A stretch of 62,126 bases of DNA from a virus (taxonomy: Duplodnaviria > Caudoviricetes): the IMG/VR virus record IMGVR_UViG_3300012940_000027, positions 1 through 62,126 of that record; one strand, written 5' to 3'. This document shows, piece by piece, positions 3,571-59,883 of the stretch (the stretch's first letter is position 1; the number at the start of each line of letters is the position of its first letter). The position numbers and the translations under genes were made by a program. The notes under the pieces were generated by a model. It saw only the letters and a program-made list of their open reading frames with translations. It was not told the DNA's origin and made no database searches.

Positions 3571-3647
3571 TGGTCGTCTCCGTACTAACGAATCGTTGCC
3601 CTCTGGCTACCGGGGAATCGGGCCGGGTTGCCCCGACCCGAGGTGGG

Positions 3648-4049
3648 CTACTGGATGGCGTACAGCATCACCCCCTTCAGGTTGATCTCCTCTTCGAGGC
3701 GGATGATCGAGAGGCGGATCGCGTGGCGGTCCCAGTGGTCGCAGCCATTCAGTTGCTTGCGCAGCTTGGCCAGCTTTGCGGCCATCTTGCTGATCTCGCG
3801 GGCCAGCTCATCCTTCATCGTGTTCTGCACGGTTTCGCGGATGTCGCTCCGGGTGGCGATCAGCTCGTTCTGGACGCTCACCTCGTTTTCGGCGTCACAG
3901 CGGCGATCGAAGACGCCGACGAACACGGGAGCGCAATCCTCGCCCGGCACGAACGCCTGGAACTGGCCCTCGAACTCCATCGTCCAACCGACCACCGCGC
4001 CCTTGCCCAGGTAGCTGTCGCGAATCGGGGTCATCGTGCTCGTCAGCAT
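3648..4049 (-). CDS. Hypothetical protein (C-terminal coiled coil)
   Basis: Start-associated sequence (SAS) at 4052-4062 directly before ATG; own promoter at 4107-4135. Confidence 0.7.
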   Translation of the reverse strand: MLTSTMTPIRDSYLGKGAVVGWTMEFEGQFQAFVPGEDCAPVFVGVFDRRCDAENEVSVQNELIATRSDIRETVQNTMKDELAREISKMAAKLAKLRKQLNGCDHWDRHAIRLSIIRLEEEINLKGVMLYAIQ

Positions 4050-4106
4050 CTTGGTCGTCTCCTGTGAGCTTCTCTTTGGTAGCCCCATGGCTACCATTGT
4101 ACCTAC

Positions 4107-4135
4107 ATTATACCCATAGAGTTGCCAGCGTGCAA
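4107..4135 (-). promoter_or_regulatory. sigma70-type promoter TTGCAC-17-TATAAT overlapped by GTTGC-N6-GCAAC operator
   Basis: Read directly; second palindrome at 4079-4094. Confidence 0.85.
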
Positions 4136-4204
4136 CCCTATTGCAGACTTTTTTCTCGCCGGAATTGGGCGCCGGAAGCAGGAATCCCCCCGGCGCGTTG
4201 CGGC

Positions 4205-4972
4205 CTATTCGTTCTCGATCTCGACCGGGAGGCCCGACCGCCTGGCACGCTCCAGCGCGGCGATGTGGCGGCCACCCTCGGGATCGTTGATGACGGTGAG
4301 GTGGTGGATCGGGAGAATGGCGAAGATACCGAGCTGGTAGTCCGGGGTGAACCCATCCGGTCGGCGCCGGGCGCGGTAGGTCGTCGAGCCGACGGTGCGA
4401 TCGACAGAGCGCCAGGGCACCTGCGGATCGAGCACGGTCTCGCCGCCCTCGACATCTTCCCAATAGAGCGCCTGGCACATCTCGTCCGGCTGGGGTCCCT
4501 CGACCGGGATGGCCATGTGCTCCATGCGCCTGGCCGGGCAGCCAGCCAGGGGTGACCAGCCGGTGGCCTCGGGCCGGCGCTCCACCACGTCGTCGCGCAG
4601 GATCGAGCGCAACTGGCCTGCGTTGCGGATCAGCGCCCGTGCGTGAAGCAGGAAGAGCTTGGACGCCTTGGAGAGCCGGCTGAAGTCGGTGTTGGTGGCG
4701 ATGCGGCGGCTGACGCCGTAGCGGCGCATCTCGGCGATCATGTCCGCCACGTTCGGGTAGTGCGTCGAGCCGACCCAATCGAAGACGTGGGTGACGCCGC
4801 CGACATCGATAAGCTGGACGCCGATCGGTTCGATCCGGAGCCGTTCGGCATCCACCGGCCGCGGCGGGCAGGGCAGGAAGTCGTCGAGGGGCACACCCCG
4901 CTCGCCGGTCGGGATGGTGATGTAGGTGCCGCCCTTCTGGCGGCGTCCGCAGCCGCGCACCACCTTATGCAT
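4205..4972 (-). CDS. Hypothetical phage protein
   Basis: GAGG RBS, 255-aa ORF with plausible globular composition. Confidence 0.7.
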   Translation of the reverse strand: MHKVVRGCGRRQKGGTYITIPTGERGVPLDDFLPCPPRPVDAERLRIEPIGVQLIDVGGVTHVFDWVGSTHYPNVADMIAEMRRYGVSRRIATNTDFSRLSKASKLFLLHARALIRNAGQLRSILRDDVVERRPEATGWSPLAGCPARRMEHMAIPVEGPQPDEMCQALYWEDVEGGETVLDPQVPWRSVDRTVGSTTYRARRRPDGFTPDYQLGIFAILPIHHLTVINDPEGGRHIAALERARRSGLPVEIENE

Positions 4973-5034
4973 GCTGCACCTCGCCAGCGTTGGCGGCCGG
5001 CCACCATGCGAGATTGATGCGCGTGAGGTCCAGT

Positions 5035-5367
5035 TCATCCATTTGTTTCCACCCGTTCACTAAACAGATTACGTGCCACCGCTTCCATCAGCGGGTAGAG
5101 CGCCAACAGCGCAGAGCGAAGGGATCGCTCGGCTTCAAGCTCCATGCAGCTCTCTGGTGCTACGGAGAGGAAGGCCAGGAAGATACCGGCAACTCGGCGC
5201 ATGGCGTCCAGGTCGTCGGCATCGAGCACTGCGAACATCGGCTCGCCAACCTGGTCGAGTCGCGCCCCCAGGCGTTCGAGGATGCGGGCCGTCTCGTCGA
5301 GAACGGCGTGCTGGTTCTCGGGAATCAGCGGGTCCATCGTCGCTCCTGCGTGGGTGGCCGGGGCCAT
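5035..5367 (-). CDS. Hypothetical protein downstream of SOS box (start may be 5337)
   Basis: ORF with AGGAG RBS before ATG 5337. Confidence 0.6.
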   Translation of the reverse strand: MAPATHAGATMDPLIPENQHAVLDETARILERLGARLDQVGEPMFAVLDADDLDAMRRVAGIFLAFLSVAPESCMELEAERSLRSALLALYPLMEAVARNLFSERVETNG

Positions 5368-5388
5368 CCCCGGCCACTAGAACGAATT

Positions 5389-5402
5389 AGAACACATGTT
5401 CT
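5389..5402. promoter_or_regulatory. Putative LexA (SOS) box AGAAC-ACAT-GTTCT
   Basis: Perfect GAAC-N4-GTTC palindrome of the Gram-positive/Chloroflexota type, upstream of ORF 5035-5367. Confidence 0.65.
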
Positions 5403-5673
5403 AGATTTTCGGGTACACTCCGCAACCAAGGGTCTCTTCCAGGACCGTCAGGTACGCGACATAGGCGACATGCTTGCAGGGCTTGCCGAAGCGGCCCGCC
5501 TTGCAGGTGCAGGTAGTCGTGGTGGCCTGGTAGACGTTCTTGCCGCTGAACACATCGAGCGTGCCCGGCCGGCTCGTCTTTTCGGCGCGGAGGCCGGAGG
5601 CGATCGCCCGGCTGATCGCCTCATCGAACTTGGCATCGCTGAACTGCTGGCTCGTGATCTCGCTGAGGGTCAT
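5401..5673 (-). CDS. SWIM zinc-finger protein
   Basis: CTCKAGRFGKPCKH = CxC-xn-CxH; SAS before ATG. Confidence 0.8.
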   Translation of the reverse strand: MTLSEITSQQFSDAKFDEAISRAIASGLRAEKTSRPGTLDVFSGKNVYQATTTTCTCKAGRFGKPCKHVAYVAYLTVLEETLGCGVYPKI

Positions 5674-5722
5674 TGGTCGTCTCCTCTGTGCGCACTTTTC
5701 GTAGCCACATGGCTACTCTCTT

Positions 5723-5751
5723 AGTATAGCAATAACGTTGCCAGTGTGCAA
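5723..5751 (-). promoter_or_regulatory. sigma70-type promoter TTGCAC-17-TATACT with operators
   Basis: Operators at 5737-5752 and 5701-5716; SAS 5674-5684. Confidence 0.85.
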
Positions 5752-5765
5752 CCATTGGTTGCCAG

Positions 5766-5936: not shown

Positions 5937-5949
5937 CGCCTCCCCTCCC

Positions 5950-6791: not shown

Positions 6792-6793
6792 CC

Positions 6794-7087
6794 CTAGGCG
6801 CAGAAGAATGTGCCGATGTGCTCCTCCCAGGCAGCCGAGCCGTCGTAGCCGGCCAGGTGCTCCGCGAATCCGGTAAAGAAGCGGTCTGCCTCGGCGGGTT
6901 CCGGAGCGACGCAGACGACGATTTGCTCGTCGTCATCGTTGAAGAGGGAGACCGACCAGGGCAGGCCGGGCAGCGTTGCGCTCTCCTCGCCTGGCTCGTC
7001 GAAAGCCAGAACGACGGTGAAGGGGCCGCAGTAGGCGATGGCGCTCTGGTCGGGGTATCGCTCGATCGCGATGGCGTGGCGGATCAT
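6794..7087 (-). CDS. Hypothetical protein
   Basis: SAS 7088-7098 immediately before ATG. Confidence 0.7.
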   Translation of the reverse strand: MIRHAIAIERYPDQSAIAYCGPFTVVLAFDEPGEESATLPGLPWSVSLFNDDDEQIVVCVAPEPAEADRFFTGFAEHLAGYDGSAAWEEHIGTFFCA

Positions 7088-7142
7088 TGGTCGTCTCCGT
7101 TTGAGGTGCGTGGCGCCGGGCCGGTCCCGGCGCCGGGGGTGC

Positions 7143-7409
7143 TTACGCGGGCGTCTCGGCGAACGCTGCGGCCCAGGCGGCCAGGACCAGCTCGTTCGCC
7201 CGCTCCTTGCCGGCGCGGCGGCTGAGCTCGTCCATCAGCTCGCGCTCCTTGGCGAGGTTGGCCTGGATGCGCGAGGTGATCTCGGTGTGCTCGGGGCCGC
7301 GCTTCAGTTCCCAGCGTTCGCGGACCCATACGGTGTCGTTCTTGGTGCATTCCACGATCTGGGTGAAGAGGCGCTCCTCGATCTTGGTCATCGGCATCGT
7401 CGCGGTCAT
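7143..7409 (-). CDS. Hypothetical protein
   Basis: SAS 7410-7420 before ATG. Confidence 0.7.
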   Translation of the reverse strand: MTATMPMTKIEERLFTQIVECTKNDTVWVRERWELKRGPEHTEITSRIQANLAKERELMDELSRRAGKERANELVLAAWAAAFAETPA

Positions 7410-7461
7410 TGGTCGTCTCCTTTGGGCTGGGTGAGCGCCGGGCGTCCGGCGCTCCGGATTC

Positions 7462-7644
7462 CTAGTGGGAACGGCGCACGGTGATCTGGAACTCCTCGCC
7501 ACCGGCCAGGCGGATCACGATGCCCTCGTTCGTTGTGAGCAGCTCGGCATCCTTGAAGCTGCGGACATCCGCGACGAGATCGGCCAGCTCCTCGTGCTCG
7601 AAGATCGCCTCGGACAGCAGGTCGGCCACTCGCTTCTCGGTCAT
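7462..7644 (-). CDS. Small hypothetical protein
   Basis: SAS 7645-7655; promoter 7701-7729. Confidence 0.7.
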   Translation of the reverse strand: MTEKRVADLLSEAIFEHEELADLVADVRSFKDAELLTTNEGIVIRLAGGEEFQITVRRSH

Positions 7645-7700
7645 TGGTCGTCTCCCTTAGGGTTTCATTCGGTAGCCCCGTGGCTTCCCGTGGTAGCTCT

Positions 7701-7729
7701 ATTATACCCAAATAGTTGCCAACGTGCAA
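7701..7729 (-). promoter_or_regulatory. sigma70-type promoter TTGCAC-17-TATAAT with operator
   Basis: Operator GTTGC-caacgt-GCAAC 7715-7730. Confidence 0.85.
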
Positions 7730-7751
7730 CCCTATAAGGGACAGTTTTCGC

Positions 7752-8476: not shown

Positions 8477-8677
8477 CTACCCTTCCAGTTCGTGCTTCAC
8501 GAAGTCGGCGGCAAGGATGCGGGCCTCCTCGTCGCACAGCTCGCAGAACGCATTGCCGCGGCTGATGTTCTCGGTGTGCCCGCATCCGGCGCAGTAGCCA
8601 CCCCGGCGTGCTGCCTCCAGCTCGGCGTTGATCTCGGCCAGCACCTCGGCCAGATCCGTGTCGGTTCCTGTGGTCAT
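8477..8677 (-). CDS. Small zinc-finger protein (CxxC...CxxC)
   Basis: SAS 8678-8688; CAGC/CELC. Confidence 0.65.
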   Translation of the reverse strand: MTTGTDTDLAEVLAEINAELEAARRGGYCAGCGHTENISRGNAFCELCDEEARILAADFVKHELEG

Positions 8678-8730
8678 TGGTCGTCTCCTCGTGCCGTGCG
8701 ACCGGGCGATCCCCGAACAGTAGTAGCCTC

Positions 8731-8759
8731 ATTATATACAAAACGTTGCCACTATGCAA
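8731..8759 (-). promoter_or_regulatory. sigma70-type promoter TTGCAT-17-TATAAT with operator
   Basis: Operator 8745-8760. Confidence 0.85.
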
Positions 8760-9197: not shown

Positions 9198-9515
9198 CTA
9201 GCAGGCGGTGACGTGCAGCAACATCTGGGCGGCGGTGCGCATCCCCCAGGTGGGGAAGGAAACGCGGGAGACCTCCTGCCACTGCTCGGCGCCGGCGTTC
9301 CAGGCCAGCTCGATCAGCACCGTCAACTCGGAGTCCACGGGGCGGTGCATTACCAGCGCCCGACCGGTTTCCTCCGGCAGTTTCACGGTGATCGCCTTGT
9401 TGAGCAGGGTGAGGAATCCGGCGTCGAGGTACTCGTTGAGCCGGAATGCAATCTCGTCGAGGCGCTCCAGATTGCGGGCGGTTTCCGGCTCGATGGTGAA
9501 CAGGACTGCGGACAT
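9198..9515 (-). CDS. Hypothetical protein
   Basis: SAS variant 9516-9526. Confidence 0.7.
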   Translation of the reverse strand: MSAVLFTIEPETARNLERLDEIAFRLNEYLDAGFLTLLNKAITVKLPEETGRALVMHRPVDSELTVLIELAWNAGAEQWQEVSRVSFPTWGMRTAAQMLLHVTAC

Positions 9516-9533
9516 CGGTCGTCTCCCTGGGGC

Positions 9534-9836
9534 TTAGGCGAACAGCGCCTTCAACTGGTCGGTCTCGGATTCACGGAGGGTGATCTGGGTCCGGGTCAGA
9601 TCGACCTTCCAGCAATGGAAGGTCTGGGAAAAGATCATGCGCTCGATCGTCACCGCCGGTTCGTCCGCGGCGAGGGTGGTCGGGGTCGCCACCGTGGCCA
9701 CGCCACCGCGCTCGGTGTGTCCATCGGCGTACTCCTTGGCCCAGGCGTTCGCGGCGAGGATGACGGCGCCGGGCTCGACCTCGCCCTCCAGGGCGCAAAG
9801 CAGTTCGCCGCGCTTCTCGACATTCAGCTTCCACAT
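9534..9836 (-). CDS. Hypothetical protein
   Basis: SAS 9840-9850; promoter 9889-9917. Confidence 0.7.
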   Translation of the reverse strand: MWKLNVEKRGELLCALEGEVEPGAVILAANAWAKEYADGHTERGGVATVATPTTLAADEPAVTIERMIFSQTFHCWKVDLTRTQITLRESETDQLKALFA

Positions 9837-9888
9837 GGTTGGTCGTCTCCTTTGTGGCTTCTTTTCGTAGCCCTGTGGCTACTTACTC

Positions 9889-9917
9889 AGTATAGCAATA
9901 ACGTTGCCATCGTGCAA
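9889..9917 (-). promoter_or_regulatory. sigma70-type promoter TTGCAC-17-TATACT with operators
   Basis: Operators 9903-9918 and 9867-9882. Confidence 0.85.
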
Positions 9918-10727: not shown

Positions 10728-10806
10728 GGATGCTCCGGGGTATTGGTCTGCGGACGGTTGGATATACTGCGCGGCGAGACGACCACCAGTTCAGAGGAGA
10801 CGACAG

Positions 10807-11355
10807 ATGCGAGGGGTGGTCGCCGTCGTGGCGGCATTGGTGATTGGCGGAAGTGTGCTGGCGGCCGAGCCGGCTCCGACGCCGCTCGGCAACGAGGCGC
10901 AGCTCGCGCCGGCCAACGTCACGGTGAAGGTGGCGGCGGTGCAGTTCGCCGACGATCCGACCGAGGTGATGCAGCTCGAACCAGGCGAGTTCACCGAGGA
11001 TCAGGCCGGGGTGATGGTCACGCTCGACATCACCAGCCACGAGCCGGAGCCGTTTCCGCTCAATGGCGTCTTCGAATTCCGCCTGATCGACGGCAACCTC
11101 CAGGAGCACAAGACCCCGTCGTCCGCTCCGACCTGCGGTAGCCCGGAGACCTTCTGGCTCTTTGCCGGCGAGCTCCGGCCGGAGGCGACCGGATCGATCA
11201 CGGTCTGCTGGCTCGTGCCGGCCGATGCGGTCGAAGGCTCGTTCATCACGTTGCGCTGGGCCGATTACGGCCAGGGCGAGCCGGTGCCGTTCGCGCTCAC
11301 ACCCGCTGCCGGCGCAAGCCCGGTCGCCTCTCCGGCGGCCTCGCCCGCACCCTGA
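10807..11355 (+). CDS. Secreted DUF4352-like Ig-fold protein (moron)
   Basis: Signal peptide, beta-rich body (F-L-D..ELRP..GSI..F/W-VP), Ala/Ser/Pro tail; opposite strand; GGAGACGACAG RBS. Confidence 0.65.
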   Translation: MRGVVAVVAALVIGGSVLAAEPAPTPLGNEAQLAPANVTVKVAAVQFADDPTEVMQLEPGEFTEDQAGVMVTLDITSHEPEPFPLNGVFEFRLIDGNLQEHKTPSSAPTCGSPETFWLFAGELRPEATGSITVCWLVPADAVEGSFITLRWADYGQGEPVPFALTPAAGASPVASPAASPAP

Positions 11356-13329: not shown

Positions 13330-13536
13330 TCAGGACTCCTGACCGCGCACCTTTCGGTAGTGCGGGCTGTGGTGGTCGCGAATGATGGTGAGATGCGGGC
13401 GCTGGCTGTTGCGGCGCTCCTCGGCGACGACGGCCTCGACGCGGAGCATCCGGGCGTGTGCCCGGTTGAGCGTCTCCTCGACGTTGTGCCGTTCAGCCTG
13501 GCGCCGGCCGAGCCATTCCATCGCCCGGTTGAACAT
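13330..13536 (-). CDS. Small hypothetical protein (lysis region)
   Basis: Overlapping stop/start with neighbours. Confidence 0.5.
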   Translation of the reverse strand: MFNRAMEWLGRRQAERHNVEETLNRAHARMLRVEAVVAEERRNSQRPHLTIIRDHHSPHYRKVRGQES

Positions 13537-13796
13537 CACGCCGATCCCCCACGGGCGGCGTGCTCCAGCTCCTCGATGCGGTCGAGCAGCCGGCTGCGCT
13601 CCGCGGCCGCCTCGCGCCGCTGTTCGTCCACCAGCGAGTCGGCCCGCTCGGTCGTGCGATCGAGCTGCGCCGCCAGCCGGTCGTACTCCCGGCCGGTCAC
13701 CAGATCGCCACGGATCAGGGACCGGACGACCAGTAAGGCCAGGCCGACCGAGACGCTCCACCCGGTCGTATCGGTGGCAAAAGCTGTCCAGTCCAT
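13536..13796 (-). CDS. Membrane protein with coiled coil (holin-associated)
   Basis: One TM then RGDLV.GREY and coiled coil; GGAG RBS. Confidence 0.65.
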   Translation of the reverse strand: MDWTAFATDTTGWSVSVGLALLVVRSLIRGDLVTGREYDRLAAQLDRTTERADSLVDEQRREAAAERSRLLDRIEELEHAARGGSA

Positions 13797-13902
13797 GCTC
13801 CTCTGCTCGCTGAATCGCCATGCCGCCCCCAATTGCCAACGAGCTTACAATAGGTTGCCATATGGCAACACCTGATTGTAGGACGATCGGCGCCGGATCG
13901 AG

Positions 13903-24070: not shown

Positions 24071-24511
24071 CTATGCGTCTCCGTCTAGGCGGAGGAAATC
24101 GAGCAAGGCGGCCGGGTCCTTTCGGAACTGCTCGACCTTCCTGTCGACTTCGCTGGTCGTCTCCGGGGTGGTGCGCTTCGTTCGTTTCCTCGCTGTTGGC
24201 GGTTCCTGGGGGAGACCGAGCGCGGCGGCGAGGGTTGGGTAACGGGGGACGTGTTTGACCTGTTTCTTCCGTTCGGCCTTGGAGACCGGCACCTCGCGGG
24301 TGGCTTTGCGCCGGTCATCGACCCAGCGGCCGAAGTCGGCGACCGCCAGGTCAAAGTCGAGGCAGATGCCAGCGGCCGCTCCTTCAGGCAAGCCCTCCCG
24401 TTGCAGGCGCTGGTTCAGGCGCAGCACCGTGCTCGGGCTGACCAGCCCCGGATACCGCCGGATCAACTGGTCCAGCTCCCACAACAGAAACCGGTTGCCC
24501 GTCAGGAAACG
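24071..24511 (-). CDS. Tail assembly chaperone, frameshift-extended (gpT-like) part
   Basis: Frame opens after TGA at 24515-24517, overlaps gpG-like ORF, ends just before tape measure. Confidence 0.6.
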   Translation of the reverse strand, partial: RFLTGNRFLLWELDQLIRRYPGLVSPSTVLRLNQRLQREGLPEGAAAGICLDFDLAVADFGRWVDDRRKATREVPVSKAERKKQVKHVPRYPTLAAALGLPQEPPTARKRTKRTTPETTSEVDRKVEQFRKDPAALLDFLRLDGDA

Positions 24512-32707: not shown

Positions 32708-32805
32708 GCGGTCCTCTCCCGTGAGCCGTTCCGTAGCTATCTGTATCGCACTACGTAGCCATTTGGCTACCTGTACGGCCCGGATCGTCCCTTGGGAGAG
32801 AACAT

Positions 32806-32861: not shown

Positions 32862-33317
32862 TTACGCCATGCGGTCGGCCGAAACCGGGCGGCCGGGTAT
32901 GCGATGGCGCATCGCATCAATGTCGGCGGAGGTGAAGATGAGATCACGTCCGCGCTTCGTTCCGACGCCGCGCTGGTGCGCGAGGGCGAGAACCCGACGG
33001 CGACTGATGCCCAATTGGACTGCTACGTCCGCCGTCGTGAACGTCGATCGCTTGATGAAGTGATCAACGTCCCAGGGCAATACATCGTCAGCATCGTCGG
33101 TCATGGTCGGGGCGGGAATCTCGGCGCCTTCATCGACCATGATGGCGATCCAGCTTTTCAAAACCTCCTGTGCGTTCCGAGCAACGTCATCCCACGTTGC
33201 GGCGAATGTCTGTGCTCCGGGTAAATCGGGAAAGTGGATGTACCATCCATCTTCCCCTGCCTGCGCCACGAACGGATAGTGGCGCTTGGCGATCTCCTCT
33301 ACTGTTGTGTTCTGCAT
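32862..33317 (-). CDS. hicB: HicB-family antitoxin with C-terminal HTH
   Basis: EDGWYIHFPDLPGAQTFA.T..A.EVL..WI...G.EIP.P. Confidence 0.9.
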   Translation of the reverse strand: MQNTTVEEIAKRHYPFVAQAGEDGWYIHFPDLPGAQTFAATWDDVARNAQEVLKSWIAIMVDEGAEIPAPTMTDDADDVLPWDVDHFIKRSTFTTADVAVQLGISRRRVLALAHQRGVGTKRGRDLIFTSADIDAMRHRIPGRPVSADRMA

Positions 33318-33378
33318 GTCTCATCTGGCGCTGGCGAGGTGGGGGACAGTGGGCTGGCCCGGACCAGCCCACCCGGTC

Positions 33379-33618
33379 TCATGCTCCCCGGTCCGTGATC
33401 TTCACGACCTGCGCGATATACCGGCGCTTCACATGCTGACCGTGTTCTAGTGGTATGCTCAAGGCTGCCACACCTTTGAACCTCCAGAAGCGATGGTTGT
33501 CTTCGGCCTCTCGGACGAAGGTCCAACCATTGTCTTCCAGCCACTCGGCCAGCTCGGAATACCGGATGCTCGCGGGGAGGGCTCGAACTTTCTCATCGAG
33601 CTTGCCTCGCTTCGCCAT
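33379..33618 (-). CDS. hicA: HicA-family mRNA interferase toxin
   Basis: EL..WLE.NGW..VR..NH..F...SIP..H..VK..YI upstream of hicB. Confidence 0.8.
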   Translation of the reverse strand: MAKRGKLDEKVRALPASIRYSELAEWLEDNGWTFVREAEDNHRFWRFKGVAALSIPLEHGQHVKRRYIAQVVKITDRGA

Positions 33619-42936: not shown

Positions 42937-42982
42937 GTGGTCGTCTCCTTCGGGTCTCGTGGCTACTGCCATTCGTAGCCAT

Positions 42983-43011: not shown

Positions 43012-43379
43012 CTCTCGCGTCTCAGTGTCACTCGCACGATGGACAGCGAAGCACCCAGGTAACCACTTGCAAATTACGGTTCGGATTTCGATTAGCCCGT
43101 CCGTGCTGAGGCGCTTCTATAAGCGAGCAACGACCTTACCCCTTACGGCCTCGATCTATTCGGGGCGCATCGTTCACGATCACTGATGAACTGAATGTGT
43201 GGATTAGAGCGGGGTGCGGCGGCGAACATGCCGCCAGCGCTTCAGCACTCAGCGCCCCTCATTTCCAGATTAGCACCACGGTTCTAAGCAGAAGGTCACT
43301 CCAGTCTGTGACAGAAATGTCACTGATATACTGGCCCAAACGCCGTTCTCGCCCCGCGTGTGGGAAGGTTTTGCGAAAT

Positions 43380-44249
43380 ATGTCCGCACAAATTGCTCTA
43401 CTTCCTGAGTTCAGTGGCGCTCGGGCGCACCTCAAATGCGAGGACAATCTCGCGTTTCTACGGGAACTACCCGACGAGAGCATGAAACTCATTGTCACGT
43501 CGCCGCCGTATAACATCGGTAAGGCTTACGAGCGGCGGAAAGCGCTCGACACTTATCTCTCTTCCCAAGCGCAAGTTATCGCCGAGAGTGTTCGGCTACT
43601 GCACCCGCAAGGGTCAATCTGCTGGCAAGTCGGAAATCACATCGCCCCAGATGGCGAAGTGGTGCCACTAGACATCGTCCTCTACCAGCACTTCAAGGAT
43701 CACGGCCTAAAGCTCCGAAACCGAATCATCTGGCACTTCGAGCACGGCCTCCATGCCTCCAAGCGCTTCTCTGGCCGCTACGAGACGATCCTCTGGTTTA
43801 CCAAGGGTGACGACTACACGTTCAACCTTGATCCCGTGCGGGTTCCCTCCAAGTACCCAAACAAGAAGCACTTCAAAGGTCCGCGGATTGGCCAACTCTC
43901 CGGCAATCCCCTGGGCAAGAATCCCTCTGATGTTTGGGTGATCCCCAACGTCAAGAACAACCATGTCGAGAAAACGATTCACCCCTGTCAATTCCCCGTG
44001 GAGCTGGTCGAACGTCTCGTCCTCTCAATGACCAACGAGGGTGATAATGTGCTCGATCCCTATGTGGGGGTAGGTTCTTCGATCATTGCCGCGCTCAAAC
44101 ACGACCGTCATGGTTACGGCTGCGACATTGCTCAGGAATATGTCGATATTGCCTGGGAGCGGATTCGTGCCTTGCGAGACGGCACCCTACGCACCCGCCC
44201 AATGGGCAAGCCTGTCTACGACCCGAGCCTTCCCAATGGCGGCCACTAG
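43380..44249 (+). CDS. Type II DNA methyltransferase (N4-C/N6-A, beta class)
   Basis: VTSPPYN before HP.QFP..L and VLDPYVGVGS. Confidence 0.9.
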   Translation: MSAQIALLPEFSGARAHLKCEDNLAFLRELPDESMKLIVTSPPYNIGKAYERRKALDTYLSSQAQVIAESVRLLHPQGSICWQVGNHIAPDGEVVPLDIVLYQHFKDHGLKLRNRIIWHFEHGLHASKRFSGRYETILWFTKGDDYTFNLDPVRVPSKYPNKKHFKGPRIGQLSGNPLGKNPSDVWVIPNVKNNHVEKTIHPCQFPVELVERLVLSMTNEGDNVLDPYVGVGSSIIAALKHDRHGYGCDIAQEYVDIAWERIRALRDGTLRTRPMGKPVYDPSLPNGGH

Positions 44250-44861
44250 ATGCAGATTGTTGAGCGCTACTCCCACCTCAACGGCTGGGAGCACATCATG
44301 GTGCATAAGCCGCAAGTGTGGCATGACATTGTCGAAGTTATCGGGCTGATTGATGCCGAATCTATCCGGACGAAAGTGTCCAAAGAGAGTAGGATGATCG
44401 GCCGCTTGCTCTTTTCACCAGAGGACCTCAATCGCCGCTTCAAAGAAGAGTTTTACGAGCGGGAGTGGCATGAGTCGGTGACCCGCTACTGGGTCACTAC
44501 GGACGTTGAGCTTATACGCGAAACGGTGTCCCTGCCGGCCGAAGAACAGCGAAGGCGCATCGAAGCGGCGGGCAAAATCCCAATCGGTTCGTTCAACCAA
44601 ACCGACTTTGTCAAAGAGCGGATTGCAGTTGAGGTGCAGTTCGGGAAGTACAGCTTTGTCGCCTTTGACCTCTTCGTCAAACACATGGCGTTTTACGTTG
44701 GCGATGTGATTGACGTTGGAGTTGAGATTCTCCCCATGAAGGCGATGTCGTCAGAAATGTCGTCGGGAATTTCGTATTACGAGCGTGAACTCTACAACGT
44801 GATCCGGCAAGGCAGGGGCGTCCCTGCCGTCCCCTTGGTTCTCGTCGGTATAGCGCCTTAA
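44250..44861 (+). CDS. BglII/BstYI-family type II restriction endonuclease
   Basis: YSHLNG, NQTDFVKERIAVEVQFGKY (D..EVQ active site); adjacent to MTase. Confidence 0.85.
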   Translation: MQIVERYSHLNGWEHIMVHKPQVWHDIVEVIGLIDAESIRTKVSKESRMIGRLLFSPEDLNRRFKEEFYEREWHESVTRYWVTTDVELIRETVSLPAEEQRRRIEAAGKIPIGSFNQTDFVKERIAVEVQFGKYSFVAFDLFVKHMAFYVGDVIDVGVEILPMKAMSSEMSSGISYYERELYNVIRQGRGVPAVPLVLVGIAP

Positions 44862-48464: not shown

Positions 48465-48518
48465 GGTGGTCGTCTCCTCGTCGCGCCGGCCGGTTTCCTG
48501 TCCGGCCATCGTAGCCAT

Positions 48519-48547
48519 ATTATATCCAAAAAGTTGCCAATGTGCAA
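48519..48547 (-). promoter_or_regulatory. sigma70-type promoter TTGCAC-17-TATAAT with operator
   Basis: Operator 48533-48548. Confidence 0.85.
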
Positions 48548-50335: not shown

Positions 50336-50345
50336 TGGTCGCTCC

Positions 50346-50956: not shown

Positions 50957-51043
50957 CGGTCATCGTCTCCTCGTGGGCTACCGGCCGGGTTAGGTGCTGT
51001 CCGGTAGCCGCGTCATGTCCATATCGTTGCCTTCTGGCAACCG

Positions 51044-51592: not shown

Positions 51593-51639
51593 TGGGGTCG
51601 TCTCCTTGGGTGGTCGGGCGGGACAGTCCCGCCCGGCGG

Positions 51640-52125
51640 TTACTCGTAGCTCGGCCGGGATTCTGCCATGAGGGTGACCGTTCTCGGCACCTGCGTCTTC
51701 GTGGTGAAGCCGAGACCCAGGCGGCGCAACGAGGCGTGCTCCTTGTGGCCGATGACCACATGGTCGAGCACCGATATGTCGAGGATGTCGCCGGCCTTCA
51801 CCAGTTCCTCGGTGACCGACACGTCACCGCTGGACGGCGTGGCATCACCGGAGGGGTGATTGTGGGCGACGATAATCGCCGTCGCGTTGAGCGCCATCGC
51901 CTCGCGGAACACCTCGGCGACGCGGATCGGAATCTGGCTAGCCGTTCCCTGATAGAGCATGCGGGTGCTCAACAGGCGGTTCTTGCCGTCGAGGGTGGCG
52001 ACGTGCAGCTCCTCGTGGTCGAGGCCGTCGAGGTGGGCGAACAGCGCCGCGATGTCCTGGGGGCTGTTGATCTTTGCCCGGCTGCGCGGTGCGATCTGGC
52101 GCGGATTCAGGGTGGTCGTCTCCAT
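51640..52125 (-). CDS. RadC-like JAB domain protein
   Basis: E..LD.KNRL, HNHPSGD..PS..D, LDH.VIG. Confidence 0.9.
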   Translation of the reverse strand: METTTLNPRQIAPRSRAKINSPQDIAALFAHLDGLDHEELHVATLDGKNRLLSTRMLYQGTASQIPIRVAEVFREAMALNATAIIVAHNHPSGDATPSSGDVSVTEELVKAGDILDISVLDHVVIGHKEHASLRRLGLGFTTKTQVPRTVTLMAESRPSYE

Positions 52126-52131: not shown

Positions 52132-52623
52132 TTAGCTCCTTGGCCCGGCGGCCAGCGTCGCCTTGATGGCGTGCAGGCGGGCGATCATCGCGTCGATGAA
52201 CGCGGCGTCGATGACGAGGGTGTCGTAATCGAGCTCGTCCCGCTCCTCGTCGGTCATGTCGTCGTGGACGTGTTCGGACGCCTGCTCGAAGAAGAGCTGC
52301 TGGCGGCCGTTCTCGTGCAGCCGGGTGAAGACCTCGATCGGTCCGTAGGAGGTCGCCGTCGTGATGGTGTGCTCGGGAAATGCGGCGTCGCCGAATCGCG
52401 CAGTGATCGACAGGTCGGCATTGCGGGTGGCAACGTCAGCCAGGATCGCCTCGGCCAGGTCGATGGCGAACTCTTCGTTCACCGTGACGAAGTGAACCTC
52501 CAACGAGTCACGGCGCTTGGCCTGGGAGAGCGAGATCGATTTGGTGGTGGGATCGCGGTGCATCGCCACCGGCGGAAGGCCCTGCCCGGCGTCGATGAGC
52601 CGGACATGCTGGGGTTCGGTCAC
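52132..52623 (-). CDS. Hypothetical protein
   Basis: SAS 52624-52634 before GTG. Confidence 0.65.
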   Translation of the reverse strand: MTEPQHVRLIDAGQGLPPVAMHRDPTTKSISLSQAKRRDSLEVHFVTVNEEFAIDLAEAILADVATRNADLSITARFGDAAFPEHTITTATSYGPIEVFTRLHENGRQQLFFEQASEHVHDDMTDEERDELDYDTLVIDAAFIDAMIARLHAIKATLAAGPRS

Positions 52624-52865
52624 TGGTCGTCTCCTTGCTGGGCGTCTGCTTCGAGGGCCAGCTCCTCGACGTAATGCTTGTAGGCCGCATCGACGGCGCT
52701 GCCGAAATTGAGTTGGTGGTGCGTGCAGTAGTGCAGAAGGTCGGAAAGCAAATCGATCAGGATGGTCTCGTTGTCTTCGTCGGGGGCGCCGACCGCCTCG
52801 CGGTAAGTGGTCATCGCCCGCTCGGCGAACGAGGCGCGAAGCGAATTGGTGAGGTTGGTCGGCAT
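52620..52865 (-). CDS. Small MazG-like helical protein
   Basis: IDLLSDLLH.....NF...DAA..HY.EE; SAS variant. Confidence 0.6.
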   Translation of the reverse strand: MPTNLTNSLRASFAERAMTTYREAVGAPDEDNETILIDLLSDLLHYCTHHQLNFGSAVDAAYKHYVEELALEADAQQGDDQ

Positions 52866-52925
52866 CCGGTCGTCTCCTTTTCGGCACCGGAGATGCCTCC
52901 CCGGTGCCGAATCGTAGCTCTCTGG

Positions 52926-53165
52926 CTACTCCATGTAGAGCGAATCGAGGCGGACGAGCAGGGTCTCGATGTCCTGCATCACGCCTTGGGCGAGCGAGGG
53001 GGCGCTGTACTCCTCCTCTGCGTACAGCTCCATCAGGGAGGCGACTTCCACCTGGATGTCGCCGGCCTCCTCGGCGTCTGCGAACCGGTGCGGGTCCACG
53101 CCCAGGAGGGTGACCAAGCGGTCGAATTCTGCCTGATGCATCGGAACAAAATTCTTCTGGGTCAT
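52926..53165 (-). CDS. Small acidic hypothetical protein
   Basis: SAS variant 53168-53178; promoter 53222-53250. Confidence 0.65.
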   Translation of the reverse strand: MTQKNFVPMHQAEFDRLVTLLGVDPHRFADAEEAGDIQVEVASLMELYAEEEYSAPSLAQGVMQDIETLLVRLDSLYME

Positions 53166-53221
53166 TGTGGTCGCCTCCGGTTCGCGCTCGGGCCGGGCCA
53201 GTTCCCGTCCATTGTAGCCCT

Positions 53222-53250
53222 ATTATACACAAATCGTTGCCATCATGCAA
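53222..53250 (-). promoter_or_regulatory. sigma70-type promoter TTGCAT-17-TATAAT with operator
   Basis: Operator 53236-53251. Confidence 0.85.
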
Positions 53251-53254: not shown

Positions 53255-53872
53255 TTAGGCGATCAATCGCTCGATCGTCTCGATGGCGCGGATCGCGTCA
53301 TCCAGCTCCGATTCACGCACGGCCAGCAGCTCGATCTCCTCATTGAGCCGGGCCAGCTCGGCGTCGAGGCGCTCGCGCTCCTGGGCGACTTCGGCCCGTT
53401 CGGCGTCCACTTTTTCACGGGCCAGGGCGAGCCGGTCGTGCTCATCCGTTATGCGTGCGAGCTTGACCTCACGGACGCCGGGCTGCCCTGTCAGCTCAGT
53501 GCTGGCGGCCGGATCATCAGCCGCCCACGGGTATTCGACGATTCCCGGAACATCTGCCACCGTAACGTCCTCCTCATCGTGGGCAGGGATCACCACCGGA
53601 TCGTCCGGCGGATCAGCCACCGGCGTCGGGTGAATCGCGGCCGAGACCGGAAAGCGGGCGTGCTTCTGGGCGGCCATGCGGTTCACATCCTCCATGCAGA
53701 CGAGGGTGCGGCCGCCGCGATTCTTGTGGCGAACTTCGTTGCGCTTCACGTAGTTGTAGACCGTTTGCGGGCTGACCAGCGCAAAGTGGGCGGCATTCGC
53801 CACCGGGAGCCAGTCGGCGCTCGGGTCCGCCTCGCCATTCCGCTTGCGCGTGTTGCCAACGGCGCTCGGCAT
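53255..53872 (-). CDS. HTH_17-like DNA-binding protein with C-terminal coiled coil
   Basis: WLPVANAAHFALVSPQTVYNYV; heptad tail; SAS. Confidence 0.7.
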   Translation of the reverse strand: MPSAVGNTRKRNGEADPSADWLPVANAAHFALVSPQTVYNYVKRNEVRHKNRGGRTLVCMEDVNRMAAQKHARFPVSAAIHPTPVADPPDDPVVIPAHDEEDVTVADVPGIVEYPWAADDPAASTELTGQPGVREVKLARITDEHDRLALAREKVDAERAEVAQERERLDAELARLNEEIELLAVRESELDDAIRAIETIERLIA

Positions 53873-53930
53873 CTGGTCGTCTCCTTGGCGTGGGCGCCGG
53901 GGATCAGCCCGGCGCCGGCGGATCAGCGGG

Positions 53931-54134
53931 CTACTCGCCGTCTTCGAGGTAGGTGTAGCGGCGGGCCTGGCCGAGCAACTGGTCGAAGTCGATGTCGTAG
54001 CCGTCGGCCAGGCGGATCAGATCGGCCAGGATGTCGGTCATCGGCTTCTTCACGCCCTCGCCATCGATCTGGTCAATCAGGTCGGCGGTCAGCGGGCTGG
54101 CCCATCCCATCTTGATCGTCGTGGCATCGGTCAT
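53931..54134 (-). CDS. Small protein, paralog of 52620-52865
   Basis: TDILADLIRLADGYDIDFDQLL.QARR..YLED; SAS 54137-54147. Confidence 0.6.
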   Translation of the reverse strand: MTDATTIKMGWASPLTADLIDQIDGEGVKKPMTDILADLIRLADGYDIDFDQLLGQARRYTYLEDGE

Positions 54135-54190
54135 TGTGGTCGTCTCCTCTGCGCTTCGGACCGGAGCAGCTCTCCGATCACTGTAGCCTC

Positions 54191-54219
54191 AGTATACACA
54201 AATAGTTGCCTATGTGCAA
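54191..54219 (-). promoter_or_regulatory. sigma70-type promoter TTGCAC-17-TATACT with operator
   Basis: Operator 54205-54220. Confidence 0.85.
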
Positions 54220-54723: not shown

Positions 54724-54990
54724 TTACGTGGTCGTCTCGGCGGACCGCTCGGCCCGCCACGGTTCCGGTTGATGCGCCAGGGTCTCGTCGGTGTCGAGGC
54801 GGGCGAGCAGCTCGTCGATCCAGGCTCGCATGCGTCCGAGGTTGTGCCGCCGGGCATCGATCGGGAGGGCGACATCGGTCGCCTCCCCCAGCGCGGCATC
54901 CTGCGCCGCCCGCAGCCGCTTGACTGTTTGCGGGCGTTCGGCGGCGAAGGCATCGACATCGAAGAGGGGCGCCGGGTTGTAGCGCGGCAT
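54724..54990 (-). CDS. Hypothetical protein
   Basis: SAS 54992-55002. Confidence 0.6.
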   Translation of the reverse strand: MPRYNPAPLFDVDAFAAERPQTVKRLRAAQDAALGEATDVALPIDARRHNLGRMRAWIDELLARLDTDETLAHQPEPWRAERSAETTT

Positions 54991-55005
54991 CTGGTCGTCT
55001 CCTCA

Positions 55006-55464
55006 CTACACCCGATTAGTAGCCTTCTGGCTACTTTTAGTATACCGATTTCGTCGCTTTTCCGCTACCAGCTCATAGCCCGGCACGATCTCGCCGTCGA
55101 GCACGGCGATGATGTTCTTGTAGTCCTCGGGCCGCCAGAGGTAGACGCGGTTGCCGGCGTGGAGGAGCGTGGTCAGCCAGACGCGCTGCGCGGGCTTCGG
55201 ATATTCACCGGGCATTTTCAGCTCGGCGTAGATGGTGCCCTTCTCTGGGTGCGCCAGCACCAGGTCGGGAAAGCCGGCCGGGGAGCGACGGCTGTCGTGC
55301 GTGTGATAGGCCAGCCACTCACGCGCCTGCGCCTCACGCATGACGATGCCGGTGAAATCGGCTTCGTTGCGCGGGTAGATCGCCCAGCGCAGTTCCTCGG
55401 CGCTCATCTCGTACTGGTCAGCCGGAATGCCGGCCAATGCCCGCCGGCGAGGATACCGTGCCAT
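55006..55464 (-). CDS. VRR-NUC domain nuclease (Holliday junction resolvase-like)
   Basis: E..F, HTHDSRRS..GFPDLVL..ELK..Q..W..WRP.D. Confidence 0.85.
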   Translation of the reverse strand: MARYPRRRALAGIPADQYEMSAEELRWAIYPRNEADFTGIVMREAQAREWLAYHTHDSRRSPAGFPDLVLAHPEKGTIYAELKMPGEYPKPAQRVWLTTLLHAGNRVYLWRPEDYKNIIAVLDGEIVPGYELVAEKRRNRYTKSSQKATNRV

Positions 55465-55466
55465 CG

Positions 55467-57272: not shown

Positions 57273-57311
57273 AAGCTCCTCCTCTGCTATCGTCTCGTAG
57301 CTACTTGGCAA

Positions 57312-58376: not shown

Positions 58377-58416
58377 GCCCCGAGGGTCATTTTCTGCGGA
58401 GATGCTGAGGAAAGTG

Positions 58417-58495
58417 TGGTATAATCCACCCTAGAAACTCCTTTCAGTTCACGAACGCCGCCCCAGGTCCGACACCCGGCGGCGTTCGTGTTTCT
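58417..58495 (+). ncRNA. Putative ~65-nt antisense RNA to replication-initiator leader (with promoter)
   Basis: Extended -10 TG-G-TATAAT 58417-58425; 13-bp hairpin 58450-58490 + TTTCT. Confidence 0.5.
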
Positions 58496-58575
58496 GGCCG
58501 TCCAAGTATAACCTACCGCGCTACGAATAGTTGCTAGTTGGCAACCATTCGGGAAACGTAGAGTAGCCATATGGG

Positions 58576-58604
58576 TTGCATAGGGTATCCCCATGTGCTA
58601 CCTT
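58576..58604 (+). promoter_or_regulatory. Antisense promoter TTGCAT-17-TACCTT
   Basis: Consensus-like hexamers, 17-bp spacer, extended TG. Confidence 0.55.
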
Positions 58605-58779
58605 GGCTGAGGCAGAGAGACTCGATACCTGCCTCCCATCTACGCACTCCGGGCACCCAGCCCGGCGACTCATGCCGAGGCCCCTCCTGACGGCTGTTGA
58701 GTCGAAACCACTGGTTCGGGGCGGCATGCAGACCCCGCCCCGAACCGCCGTCACCCGCCACTGCGCAATCGGCGGACGC

Positions 58780-58808
58780 TTGACGGAGAATTGCCTTAGT
58801 GCTACCCT
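58780..58808 (+). promoter_or_regulatory. Antisense promoter TTGACG-17-TACCCT
   Basis: Consensus-like hexamers, 17-bp spacer, extended TG; one-mismatch operators at 58790-58805 and 58813-58828. Confidence 0.6.
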
Positions 58809-58813
58809 AATGG

Positions 58814-58890
58814 TGGCCCTAGGGCTACCACCGGATTCTTGGTCGTCTCCGACGTGGGCGAAGCGCCACTGCACCCGCAGTGGCGTTTTT
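58814..58890 (+). ncRNA. Putative anti-SAS small RNA (~75 nt)
   Basis: Promoter upstream, UUCUUGGUCGUCUCC seed (58836-58850), intrinsic terminator. Confidence 0.55.
58861..58890 (+). terminator. Intrinsic terminator (+ strand)
   Basis: AAGCGCCACTGC-ACCC-GCAGTGGCGTTTTT. Confidence 0.8.
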
Positions 58891-58901
58891 GCATGCCCGC
58901 G

Positions 58902-59723
58902 CTAGCTCCGGGCCGGAGCCTGGCCCATGATCTGCTGCTTCTGCTTCGTGACCGCGGCGTCGATCTCGGGGTGGAGGCGCAGTCCGTTTTCTTGCAGCGC
59001 CGTGATGACGTTTTCCAGCGCCGCTGCCGTCCGGGCGTTGCTGATGTTGCGCAGCCAGGCGAAGAGAGTCTGGTCCTGGCCGGACGATGGCGGTGGCGGT
59101 GCCGAGGGCGCCGGCGCGGCGTTGGACGTGTCGCCGCCGAGGCGCTTGATGAGGTCGGACGCCTGCGCCTTGCTGAGCTGGGCGAGCACCGCGCCGTAGA
59201 TCGACTTCGCGTGGGCGTTGGCCTCATCCGGGTCCACACCCTGCTCCTCGTACATCTTGCCGAGCTTGAAGAGCTGCTTGTCGGTCGCCGGCTCCGCGGA
59301 GTAGCGTCCATTAGCCGTATTCGTAGCTCTCTGGCTACCATAGGAACCGGAGGCCCGGCCGGGCGTGGCGACCGGCGCATCGACCACGCGGTCGGTGCCC
59401 TCGTCGAAGTCGGTGGCGAACTGCGTGCCGAAGCCCAGCGCGGCCAGTGCCCGGCCCAGCGCCTTGGTCTCGGCCTTTTCCACGAAATCGCGGAAGTCGC
59501 TGTACTGCTCCTGTCCCCAGCCGGTGGCCGAGCCGCCGCCGGGGATGGTCACCTTCGCCCGGAACACCGCCGCGTCGCCGGTGAAGCTGGTCATCTCCGT
59601 GGCGATCTCGGCGTCAGGGTGCTCGGTGCGCAGCCAGAGCAGCCGCCATTTCACTTCGAGGTATTCGGCTCCTGAGACACGAGTCAGGAACCGGGATGGT
59701 TCAAATACGCTTGCGTTCTCCAC
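58902..59723 (-). CDS. Rad52/Sak-like single-strand annealing protein
   Basis: YLEVKWRL.W.R, ATGWG, EKAETKALGRALAALGFG; AT.KQ..L C-terminal motif; SAS 59724-59734. Confidence 0.8.
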   Translation of the reverse strand: MENASVFEPSRFLTRVSGAEYLEVKWRLLWLRTEHPDAEIATEMTSFTGDAAVFRAKVTIPGGGSATGWGQEQYSDFRDFVEKAETKALGRALAALGFGTQFATDFDEGTDRVVDAPVATPGRASGSYGSQRATNTANGRYSAEPATDKQLFKLGKMYEEQGVDPDEANAHAKSIYGAVLAQLSKAQASDLIKRLGGDTSNAAPAPSAPPPPSSGQDQTLFAWLRNISNARTAAALENVITALQENGLRLHPEIDAAVTKQKQQIMGQAPARS

Positions 59724-59883
59724 TGGTCGTCTCCCGGTAAAGTATCCAGCCCCAGGCAGGGGGGGCCTCGGCTGGATCGATCACGAGGTGCTTGTCAACG
59801 ATGCGAAAGCCCTCCTTGGTGATGCGCTGAACCTCGGCGTCGAATGCCGATTCCTCATCGCCGGAAAGCTCGTGGAAGCTCAT
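59701..59883 (-). CDS. Small hypothetical protein, first gene of leftward operon
   Basis: GGAGACC before ATG; promoter 59975-60003. Confidence 0.45.
   Translation of the reverse strand: MSFHELSGDEESAFDAEVQRITKEGFRIVDKHLVIDPAEAPPAWGWILYRETTSGERKRI

Follow-up and report, generated by a model that had tools for sequence, protein, structure and literature searches.

The DNA analysed here (hereafter the window) is the whole of IMG/VR virus record IMGVR_UViG_3300012940_000027, 62,126 bp in length, and it carries 18 exact copies of an 11-nt sequence, GGAGACGACCA, 15 of which end 0–3 nt 5′ of the ATG or GTG of a called gene. We refer to this element as a start-associated sequence (SAS), or the tag. 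It marks a subset of the non-structural genes, about twenty small ones, contains a Shine–Dalgarno (SD) core and is constrained beyond its pairing with 16S rRNA. It had been taken to be private to this prophage; instead, several unrelated viral contigs also have genes headed by this 11-mer. From its placement and composition, the tag is likely to act on the mRNA, at the level of translation initiation. The complete statement, in which the SAS mark also has a dedicated sequence-specific reader, is plausible on the sequence evidence while falling short of probable.

All 18 exact copies lie on the minus strand. The expected number was 0.06, none of 100 shuffles reached 18, and the tag is the commonest 11-mer on the coding strand; with up to two mismatches, the window holds 80 matches against 29.8 expected. 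Every exact copy listed in the original prediction, which was made from the letters of the window, was recovered, and independent gene calls bore out the adjacency to start codons for the 15 copies mentioned above, with a gap of 0 nt in eight, 1 nt in three, 2 nt in three and 3 nt in one. Seven variants, four with one mismatch and three with two, lie equally close to a start codon (0–3 nt) and are co-oriented with their genes, and a form one base shorter precedes the ATG at 50335. The six variants already predicted (9516, 50336, 50960, 51595, 52867 and 53168) are all present, and to these we added three: a tandem pair on the plus strand, at 10775 and 10796, and a weak variant at 32709. Three of the exact copies do not fit this pattern, again as described: one at the start of a RadC-like gene (52113), one internal (24154) and one orphan (58840). 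The internal copy falls in a poorly conserved linker of the tail-chaperone open reading frame (ORF), is not kept in four relatives and is probably due to chance, codon shuffling giving an expectation of 0.09 such copies.

Matches to PHROGs and Pfam show the gene content of a temperate siphovirus. Gene calls and start positions came from a codon-bias caller, and the class counts rest on its 93 genes: 30 late genes, running from terS to the holin gene (packaging, virion and lysis), and 63 non-late genes outside that block. With at most one mismatch allowed, the tag is found on 19 of the 63 non-late genes and on none of the 30 late genes (Fisher p = 0.00025). The bias persists when only genes preceded by a gap of ≥25 nt are counted (15 of 33 non-late versus 0 of 9 late, p = 0.016), so it does not arise only from the tight packing of the late genes. 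The claim that the tag marks non-structural genes only therefore stands as a bias but not as a rule for the whole class: about one-third of the non-structural genes are tagged, and most of these come first after an intergenic hairpin or promoter. The single late-region case is the weak two-mismatch variant at 32709, and plus-strand use is limited to the gene starting at 10807. An ATG start codon is present in 19 of the 22 tagged genes versus 46 of the 71 others. The head, tail and lysis genes had been thought to extend to 42.4 kb; the genes at 38.9–42.4 kb turned out to be ParB/methyltransferase genes, not head genes.

The anatomy of the tag was derived from 29 start-adjacent sites, 20 from the window and nine from its relative C4, a 47.7-kb contig binned with a Chloroflexia metagenome-assembled genome (MAG). 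Each of the 11 positions is conserved in 26–29 of the 29 sites (26 at position 11 and 28 or 29 at each of the other ten), and the borders are sharp: the flanks carry ~0–0.7 bit, and the nine bases upstream are A/C-rich and otherwise free in sequence. The tag places GGAG, usually as AGGAG, 7–10 nt 5′ of the start codon, where the anti-SD tail pairs; directly after it comes ACGACCA, which is invariant and unpaired in the predicted folds. The 47 non-SAS genes that have an SD core each show a different spacer (20 of 20 late, 27 of 27 other). According to folding predictions, the upstream 70 nt form more structure than shuffled sequence at 18 of 20 sites (mean z of ~−1.6), with a hairpin that ends a few bases 5′ of the tag. 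The median energy predicted for opening positions −14 to +3 is 4.4 kcal/mol in 19 SAS genes, lower than the 7.4 kcal/mol of 41 other non-late genes and the 7.0 kcal/mol of the 30 late genes.

Comparison with presumed-host 16S rRNA showed that the tag is not fully explained by anti-SD complementarity. In the putative host class, the 3′ tail of the 16S reads GGATCACCTCCTTTCT in 27 of 28 cases (two loci from unpublished genomes are excluded from this count), and consequently only GGAG and three of the next seven bases can pair. Position 5 is A in 28 of the 29 sites, though G would lengthen the pairing. Pairing elsewhere in the 16S was rejected, as seven full 16S sequences contain no 11-nt complement (best 9 of 11, counting G–U pairs); the 16S of the MAG itself is without its 3′ half.

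The host class was taken from the binning of C4, a free phage contig, and the host controls are only as good as that assignment. In C4 the excisionase-like and integrase genes are adjacent, which is the excised gene order, and the host link thus rests on binning. Within the MAG, eight tag copies lie on C4 and one elsewhere, the latter inside an ORF and not a tRNA. Across 401 genomes of the class we counted 2,435 copies of the tag, or about six per genome (11 of the genomes being unpublished). The string GGAGACGACCAATG occurs 39 times, five times on C4 and 34 times elsewhere in 32 genomes (3 of them unpublished, giving 4 of the 34 matches), and these 34 make up ~1.4% of the ~2,426 host 11-mers, against a chance level of 1/64. 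All 20 host copies that were sampled lie in long open frames, two being followed by ATG. Prophage clusters in the host class were also considered and rejected, since ten genomes whose counts were high or skewed to one strand all had scattered copies. These counts show that the genomes of the class do not use the tag at gene starts above chance, so it is not equally common before genes of the presumed host class. Judged as an ordinary SD site, the tag has the expected GGAG, whereas its fixed spacer and its non-use at host starts do not fit.

These results bear on the main rival explanation, in which the tag would be an intrinsically optimal, insulated ribosome-binding site without a dedicated reader, and phages of one host group would have converged on, or exchanged, the best sequence for genes in need of rapid translation. 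Such a site would combine a correctly spaced GGAG, a G/U-poor spacer and linker without folding capacity and an upstream hairpin that protects the 5′ end and insulates the site. It fits the much more open initiation regions predicted for SAS genes, the structured 70 nt upstream and the nine A/C-rich nucleotides without sequence conservation; the lack of a reader among our candidates also fits, and a tag common to unrelated phages is what would be expected if the host ribosome were the sole reader. Accessibility, however, needs no one 7-mer, and yet positions 5–11 are each kept in 26–29 of 29 sites next to a freely varying linker. The A at position 5, the non-use at starts in the presumed host class and the retention of a start-less orphan in two diverged phages also argue against this explanation, which we regard as rather unlikely.

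The reading with a dedicated factor gains from the distribution of the tag among other viruses. Scanning IMG/VR with one 17-mer (the tag plus ATGAC) returned 36 stretches, three of which carry clusters of the 11-mer (≤1 mismatch) with every copy abutting a start codon: eight of eight copies in the 9.7-kb G414, five of five in locus L351 of G412 and four of four (≤1 mismatch) in the 7-kb G415. A further contig, G413, has two start-abutting copies. As the IMG/VR scans covered the matches listed or this single 17-mer, the true number of carriers is at least that found. The full G412 record is 47.6 kb long, 100% complete according to CheckV, and has six copies distributed over the two strands, every one of them pointing the same way as its ORF. 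In an all-against-all BLASTP comparison (ORFs ≥40 aa, E ≤ 1e-5), G412 and G415 had no protein in common with the window or C4, and G413 and G414 had only a distant large terminase in common with the window; the 50 tag-led ORFs of the six genomes include one homologous pair only. The promoter-like cassettes upstream differ from those of the window and among themselves, leaving the 11-mer as the only common element. The five tag-led G412 ORFs that were scanned matched no PHROG family. A variant with T at position 7, GGAGACTACCA, precedes start codons at 5351 and 7414 of L351 (G412) and at 914 of L374 (G415), which suggests a tolerated or alternative form of the tag.

Other searches for carriers were negative. 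Two earlier IMG/VR pattern scans, with 233 loci among the matches listed, gave single chance matches, no relative and no locus with three or more start-adjacent copies; G001 and G002, taken from the first of these scans, proved to be unrelated. Among cultured phages (INPHARED), a 32-nt SAS site matched four records, with no clusters and no carrier, and megablast with 8 kb found nothing.

C4 is the only close relative with early genes, its major capsid protein (MCP) being 76% identical in amino acids to that of the window. At the nucleotide level the two resemble each other only in their most conserved genes, at ~67–77%; the tag is nevertheless identical. C4 has eight exact copies on one strand, seven at start codons and one orphan, together with start-adjacent one-mismatch copies, one of which precedes the primase gene. 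In both phages the tag occupies syntenic slots after cro, after the VRR-NUC gene and after a helix-turn-helix (HTH) gene. The orphans, at 58840–58850 (−) in the window and 13532–13542 (+) on C4, are syntenic as well: each consists of a hairpin, 9–12 nt, the tag and AAG, with no start codon, and is flanked by the gene following cro and by the replication-initiator gene. Relatives with an MCP at 78–79% identity cover the structural module only and have no tag copy, a primase/helicase search of IMG/VR and metagenome contigs yielded relatives at ≤38% identity only, and the more distant relatives G006–G008 have no start-associated repeat. G006, the 56.9-kb IMG/VR record behind locus L012 (MCP 46% identical in amino acids), contains more than 60 copies of a palindrome, AACGGCCGTT, often as GAAACGGCCGTTTC, which is a different and very abundant repeat.

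Two of the syntenic slots (54992/C4 18437 and 54137/C4 22873) combine homologous upstream genes with non-homologous tagged genes. The tag is also independent of gene family, as the RusA-like gene and the primase are tagged on C4 and untagged in the window, and the tagged window genes are mostly lineage-specific, 2 of 22 having a C4 homologue versus 29 of 71 others (p = 0.008). This pattern could be produced by a recombination linker, or by a part of mobile cassettes resembling the promoter-early stem-loops (PeSLs) of T4-type phages: small accessory genes would be swapped at the tag, and its conservation would reflect exchange rather than control of expression. The ten near-identical cassettes between small ORFs described below are in line with such a linker. 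The homologue deficit is, however, not significant in comparison with other non-late genes only (2 of 22 versus 12 of 42, p = 0.11), eleven bases are short for homologous exchange, and unrelated phages have the 11-mer in common but not the cassettes. A linker would also need neither the anchoring 0–3 nt from the start codon nor the inclusion of GGAG, and we consider this explanation improbable.

The ten near-identical cassettes lie on the minus strand and consist of TTGCAC-N4-GGCAAC, 7–8 nt and a TAnAnT hexamer. GTTGC and GGCAAC are invariant, and an inverted repeat, GTTGC-N6-GCAAC, covers the −35 region; the TAnAnT hexamer is recognisable in nine of the ten (TATAAT or TATACT in eight, TAGGAT at 60003), with only a poor TAAGCT at 13868. 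A tag follows eight of the cassettes at a distance of ~45 nt; the remaining two are the cro promoter and the late-region cassette at 13868. About half of the tag copies of the window belong to cassettes. From this layout we infer that the cassettes act as promoters. A generic promoter/terminator scan flagged four of the ten and also 43011–42983, outside the cassettes; its totals (1 and 3 sites) are at the level of shuffles. Because the inverted repeat also sits at the cro promoter, beside the repressor gene, it may be a repressor/immunity operator that puts about ten promoters under one repressor. The original prediction had early and late genes separated by translation; with the ten cassettes heading many of the same genes, the split is probably at least partly transcriptional, made at that level too by the repeated cassettes.

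For the cassette aspect, PeSLs are the nearest model by analogy. They are cassettes of promoter and stem-loop at which recombination was shown (PMC2839356). PeSLs and the window cassettes alike combine a sigma-70-like promoter (a putative one in the window) with a stem-loop, lie between small non-essential ORFs and are found in variable regions; PeSLs go with gene gain, loss and replacement, as the window cassettes may. PeSLs are defined by promoter and terminator, without a conserved ribosome-binding tag, unlike the cassettes of the window (PMC2839356).

A second palindrome, TAGCC-N4-GGCTA, occurs eight times in the window and ~13 times on C4, often in early 5′ leaders between promoter and tag but also in late intergenic regions or before late genes. 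Its arms are conserved, and its loop is free in the window and mostly A-rich on C4. Since the changes in the arms are one-sided, the palindrome may be bound by a protein instead of acting simply as an RNA hairpin.

A DNA-level role was also considered for the tag itself. In Cluster A phages, stoperators are repressor-binding DNA sites related to the early-promoter operator, spread through both genome arms with the late genes included, and not tied to start codons (PMC9283540). If the tag were such a site for a phage DNA-binding protein, a repressor on many asymmetric sites would block elongation in the lysogen. Like stoperators, the tag is asymmetric, occurs in many copies across the genome and always points with transcription (PMC9283540); it lies at gene boundaries, and the phage is temperate and has a repressor-like gene. 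Against this, there is no copy with up to two mismatches in the repressor/cro intergenic region (59884–60249), where an operator would be expected, and the cro promoter and nine others carry a different palindrome, GTTGC-N6-GCAAC. None of the 30 genes of the late operon carries a copy, a block to transcription would not require a fixed distance of 0–3 nt from the start, and phages without common proteins carry the same motif. The absence from the cro promoter and the late operon and the fixed start distance separate the tag from stoperators as described (PMC9283540), and we find this role very improbable.

The mechanism we favour is therefore stated at the level of the message. The tag would be a cis-acting mRNA mark at the initiation region of early and accessory genes: its GGAG would pair with the anti-SD tail, and the seven-base extension ACGACCA would be read by a sequence-specific trans-acting factor. 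Through this factor, the tagged genes would be translated under a regime of their own, by preferential early initiation or by a timed shut-off. A hairpin and an A/C-rich linker precede the tag, and the promoter-plus-inverted-repeat cassettes that contain about half of its copies are the analogue of the extended start-associated sequence (ESAS) of actinobacteriophages. A phage-encoded protein is an unlikely reader, because two complete genomes have the tag but no protein in common; a host-encoded reader is more likely, given that the tag heads unrelated ORFs in phages without a detectable common protein. The translational regulon of the original prediction is thus upheld as regards start anchoring, the SD core, constraint beyond the 16S and non-use at host starts; the RNA or protein that was to target it was not found.

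Several observations weigh against this mechanism. The repeated promoters alone could make the early/late split, and, with its high predicted accessibility and correct SD spacing, the tag could be a strong ribosome-binding site that needs no extra factor. The gene calls and starts come from a codon-bias caller, the host-genome controls depend on a host assigned by binning, and three of the four extra carriers are fragments, in which a common small gene could have been missed. Our search for the reader in the window was negative: there is no RNA-binding family among its proteins (Pfam, PHROGs), Rfam and tRNA scans gave no match, and the co-transcribed strand holds no complement of the motif. 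The plus strand has no exact copy, and none of its three one-mismatch copies falls within a plausible RNA. Two conserved unknown proteins were compared with PDB sequences, without a useful match. Mimicry of, or pairing with, tRNA was rejected, as the window has no tRNA and the initiator tRNAs of five class genomes offer only 5–6 contiguous complementary bases, with five in the MAG.

A broader and more speculative picture would make the tag the address label of a translational pathway common to a guild of unrelated soil phages. A host component, or one altered by infection, would recognise ACGACCA beside the SD core and grant privileged or timed initiation, leaving host genes outside; the SAS of mycobacteriophages and Microbacterium phages would then be independent inventions of one such layer of control, and the orphans decoys or titrators of the reader. 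Taken as a whole, this picture is unlikely.

A class-specific reader of an SD-containing tag has a precedent in the T4 endoribonuclease RegB, which cuts within GGAG of the ribosome-binding sites of early messages and thereby shuts off early translation. The window differs from RegB targets in that no RegB-like gene was detected with Pfam or PHROGs and in that its tag is 11 nt long, not 4.

Actinobacteriophages have been known to carry start-associated sequences since 2011, and papers of 2024–2025 still state the role of these sequences as unknown. In the published descriptions, the Cluster K consensus is GGGATAGGAGCCC, present in 11–19 copies per genome at 3–9 nt from the start codon and reported as confined to Cluster K. 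A subset of these copies has the ESAS upstream, an element of ~45–50 bp with −35/−10 hexamers 17–18 bp apart and an imperfect inverted repeat; that of phage Adephagia contains a SigA-like promoter with an inverted repeat. According to the same descriptions, the Cluster K SAS and the window tag are alike in being short and asymmetric, with many copies in one orientation a few nucleotides 5′ of starts. Both are found on non-structural genes only, are enriched for ATG, contain an SD core, are conserved beyond 16S pairing and are rare in the host or presumed host. About half of the copies in each case have an upstream sigma-70/SigA-like promoter (a putative one in the window) with an imperfect inverted repeat, and tagged and untagged members can occur within one gene family.

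The two sequences are unrelated except for GGAG, so the window tag is, on sequence comparison, an analogue and not a homologue of the Cluster K SAS. Further differences from the Cluster K element as described in those sources are that the SD core lies at the 5′ end of the motif, that the motif abuts the start (0–3 nt versus 3–9 nt), and that the window has the second palindrome, TAGCC-N4-GGCTA, and a conserved start-less orphan. In addition, the host is probably not an actinobacterium, and the tag is also present in phages without common proteins. Cluster EF Microbacterium phages carry about ten well-conserved copies of a motif at the ribosome-binding position, each with a weakly conserved sequence upstream (PMC7302621). 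Their motif, GGGAAAGGACCCC, is unrelated to the window tag, the layout is alike, and the EF host is an actinobacterium (PMC7302621). We found no paper describing the present 11-mer in the literature on start-associated sequences, PeSLs and stoperators, in which the sequence itself was not a search term.

The window thus presents the SAS layout (a start-codon tag, an upstream promoter-plus-inverted-repeat cassette and restriction to non-structural genes) with an unrelated sequence and in a phage whose host probably belongs to another phylum. An identical tag in phages without common proteins is not reported for the mycobacteriophage tag, and it narrows the search for the reader towards the host or the ribosome. 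The carriers together form a comparative set with one tag, several promoter contexts and 50 unrelated downstream genes, and the tag offers a practical start-codon marker for annotating the small ORFan genes of these phages.

Table 1. Tag sites, promoter-like cassettes, palindromes and gene blocks of the window (positions of the whole stretch).
Feature	Position	Strand	Remarks
Exact SAS	59724..59734	-	GTG at 59723; 273-aa gene, first after the cro-like gene; orthologous site C4 12779
Exact copy, orphan	58840..58850	-	Hairpin, 12 nt, motif, AAG; without start codon; syntenic orphan C4 13532
Exact SAS	54992..55002	-	ATG at 54990
Exact SAS	54137..54147	-	ATG at 54134
Exact SAS	53874..53884	-	ATG at 53872
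Variant GGAGGCGACCA	53168..53178	-	ATG at 53165
Variant GGAGACGACCG	52867..52877	-	ATG at 52865
Exact SAS	52624..52634	-	GTG at 52623; within last codons of upstream gene
Exact copy	52113..52123	-	Overlaps ATG (52125-52123) of RadC-like gene, which has its own AAGGAG further upstream
Variant GGAGACGACCC	51595..51605	-	ATG at 51592
Variant GGAGACGATGA	50960..50970	-	ATG at 50956
One-base-shorter form GGAGCGACCA	50336..50345	-	ATG at 50335
Exact SAS	48467..48477	-	ATG at 48464
Exact SAS	42938..42948	-	ATG at 42936; first gene of block leading to ParB/methyltransferase and packaging genes
Weak variant GGAGAGGACCG	32709..32719	-	ATG at 32707
Exact copy, internal	24154..24164	-	Inside tail-chaperone ORF; codes PETTS
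Two tandem SAS-like copies CGAGACGACCA, GGAGACGACAG	10775..10806	+	Before ATG 10807 of plus-strand gene
Exact SAS	9840..9850	-	ATG at 9836
Variant GGAGACGACCG	9516..9526	-	ATG at 9515
Exact SAS	8678..8688	-	ATG at 8677
Exact SAS	7645..7655	-	ATG at 7644
Exact SAS	7410..7420	-	ATG at 7409
Exact SAS	7088..7098	-	ATG at 7087
Exact SAS	5674..5684	-	ATG at 5673
Exact SAS	4052..4062	-	ATG at 4049
Exact SAS	3571..3581	-	GTG at 3570
Cassette	59975..60003	-	cro-like gene; without SAS
Cassette	54191..54219	-	Then SAS 54137
Cassette	53222..53250	-	Then SAS variant 53168
Cassette	48519..48547	-	Then SAS 48467
Cassette	13842..13868	-	Late region, before gene 13796-13536; without SAS
Cassette	9889..9917	-	Then SAS 9840
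Cassette	8731..8759	-	Then SAS 8678
Cassette	7701..7729	-	Then SAS 7645
Cassette	5723..5751	-	Then SAS 5674
Cassette	4107..4135	-	Then SAS 4052
Palindrome, one arm imperfect	59324..59337		Inside gene 59723-58902
Palindrome/hairpin TAGCC-N4-GGCTA	55020..55033		17 nt before SAS 54992
Palindrome TAGCC-N4-(A)GCTA	52915..52928		Upstream of SAS variant 52867
Palindrome	32756..32769		Late intergenic, before gene 32707-31421
Palindrome/hairpin	9868..9881		Between promoter 9917 and SAS 9840
Palindrome/hairpin	5702..5715		Between promoter 5751 and SAS 5674
Palindrome/hairpin	4080..4093		Between promoter 4135 and SAS 4052
Palindrome	234..247		Near left prophage end
Integrase gene	60680-61849	+	Right end; PHROGs/Pfam
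Repressor-like gene	60250-60687	+	Right end; PHROGs/Pfam
Early block	59.9 down to 44.9 kb	-	cro-like, replication initiator, primase/helicase, VRR-NUC nuclease, HTH proteins, RadC-like, many small ORFs
BglII-like restriction-modification pair	43.2-44.9 kb	+	
Late genes	38.9 down to 11.4 kb	-	After the ParB/methyltransferase genes (38.9-42.4 kb); terS, terL, portal, MCP, tail genes, tape measure, lysin, holin
Left-end block	10.7 down to 0.3 kb		ThyX, ~20 small ORFs, RusA-like, ParB-like, excisionase-like HTH gene

On the evidence of its ends, the window is the integrated form of a soil phage: each end has an imperfect direct repeat together with pieces of an ABC-transporter-like gene. The fragments are partly duplicated between positions 1–300 and 61900–62126, and the repeat, CGGTTGTCGTCA-N3-GTGGGGTCAAA, lies at 276 and 61914; the phage appears to have integrated into an ABC-transporter-like gene. 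The 142-nt fragment at the right end has at most 82% identity to genomes of the putative host class and is not discriminating for the host.

The tag-like tandem copies on the plus strand, together with a TATACT hexamer, lie upstream of a gene in the region 10764–11355 whose product has a signal-peptide-like N-terminus, between the lysis genes and thyX. The restriction-modification pair (43197–44861, +) encodes an N6/N4 DNA methylase and a BglII-like restriction endonuclease on the strand opposite to its neighbours and lies in the lowest-GC part of the window (0.60); placed between the early and late blocks, it resembles a moron. A lower-GC stretch of the late region (32862–33618, −) carries a HicA-like gene (79 aa, under the Pfam cut-off) paired with a HicB-like gene (151 aa, over the cut-off), and the Cluster K phage Adephagia likewise has a HicAB pair, there with a SAS/ESAS.

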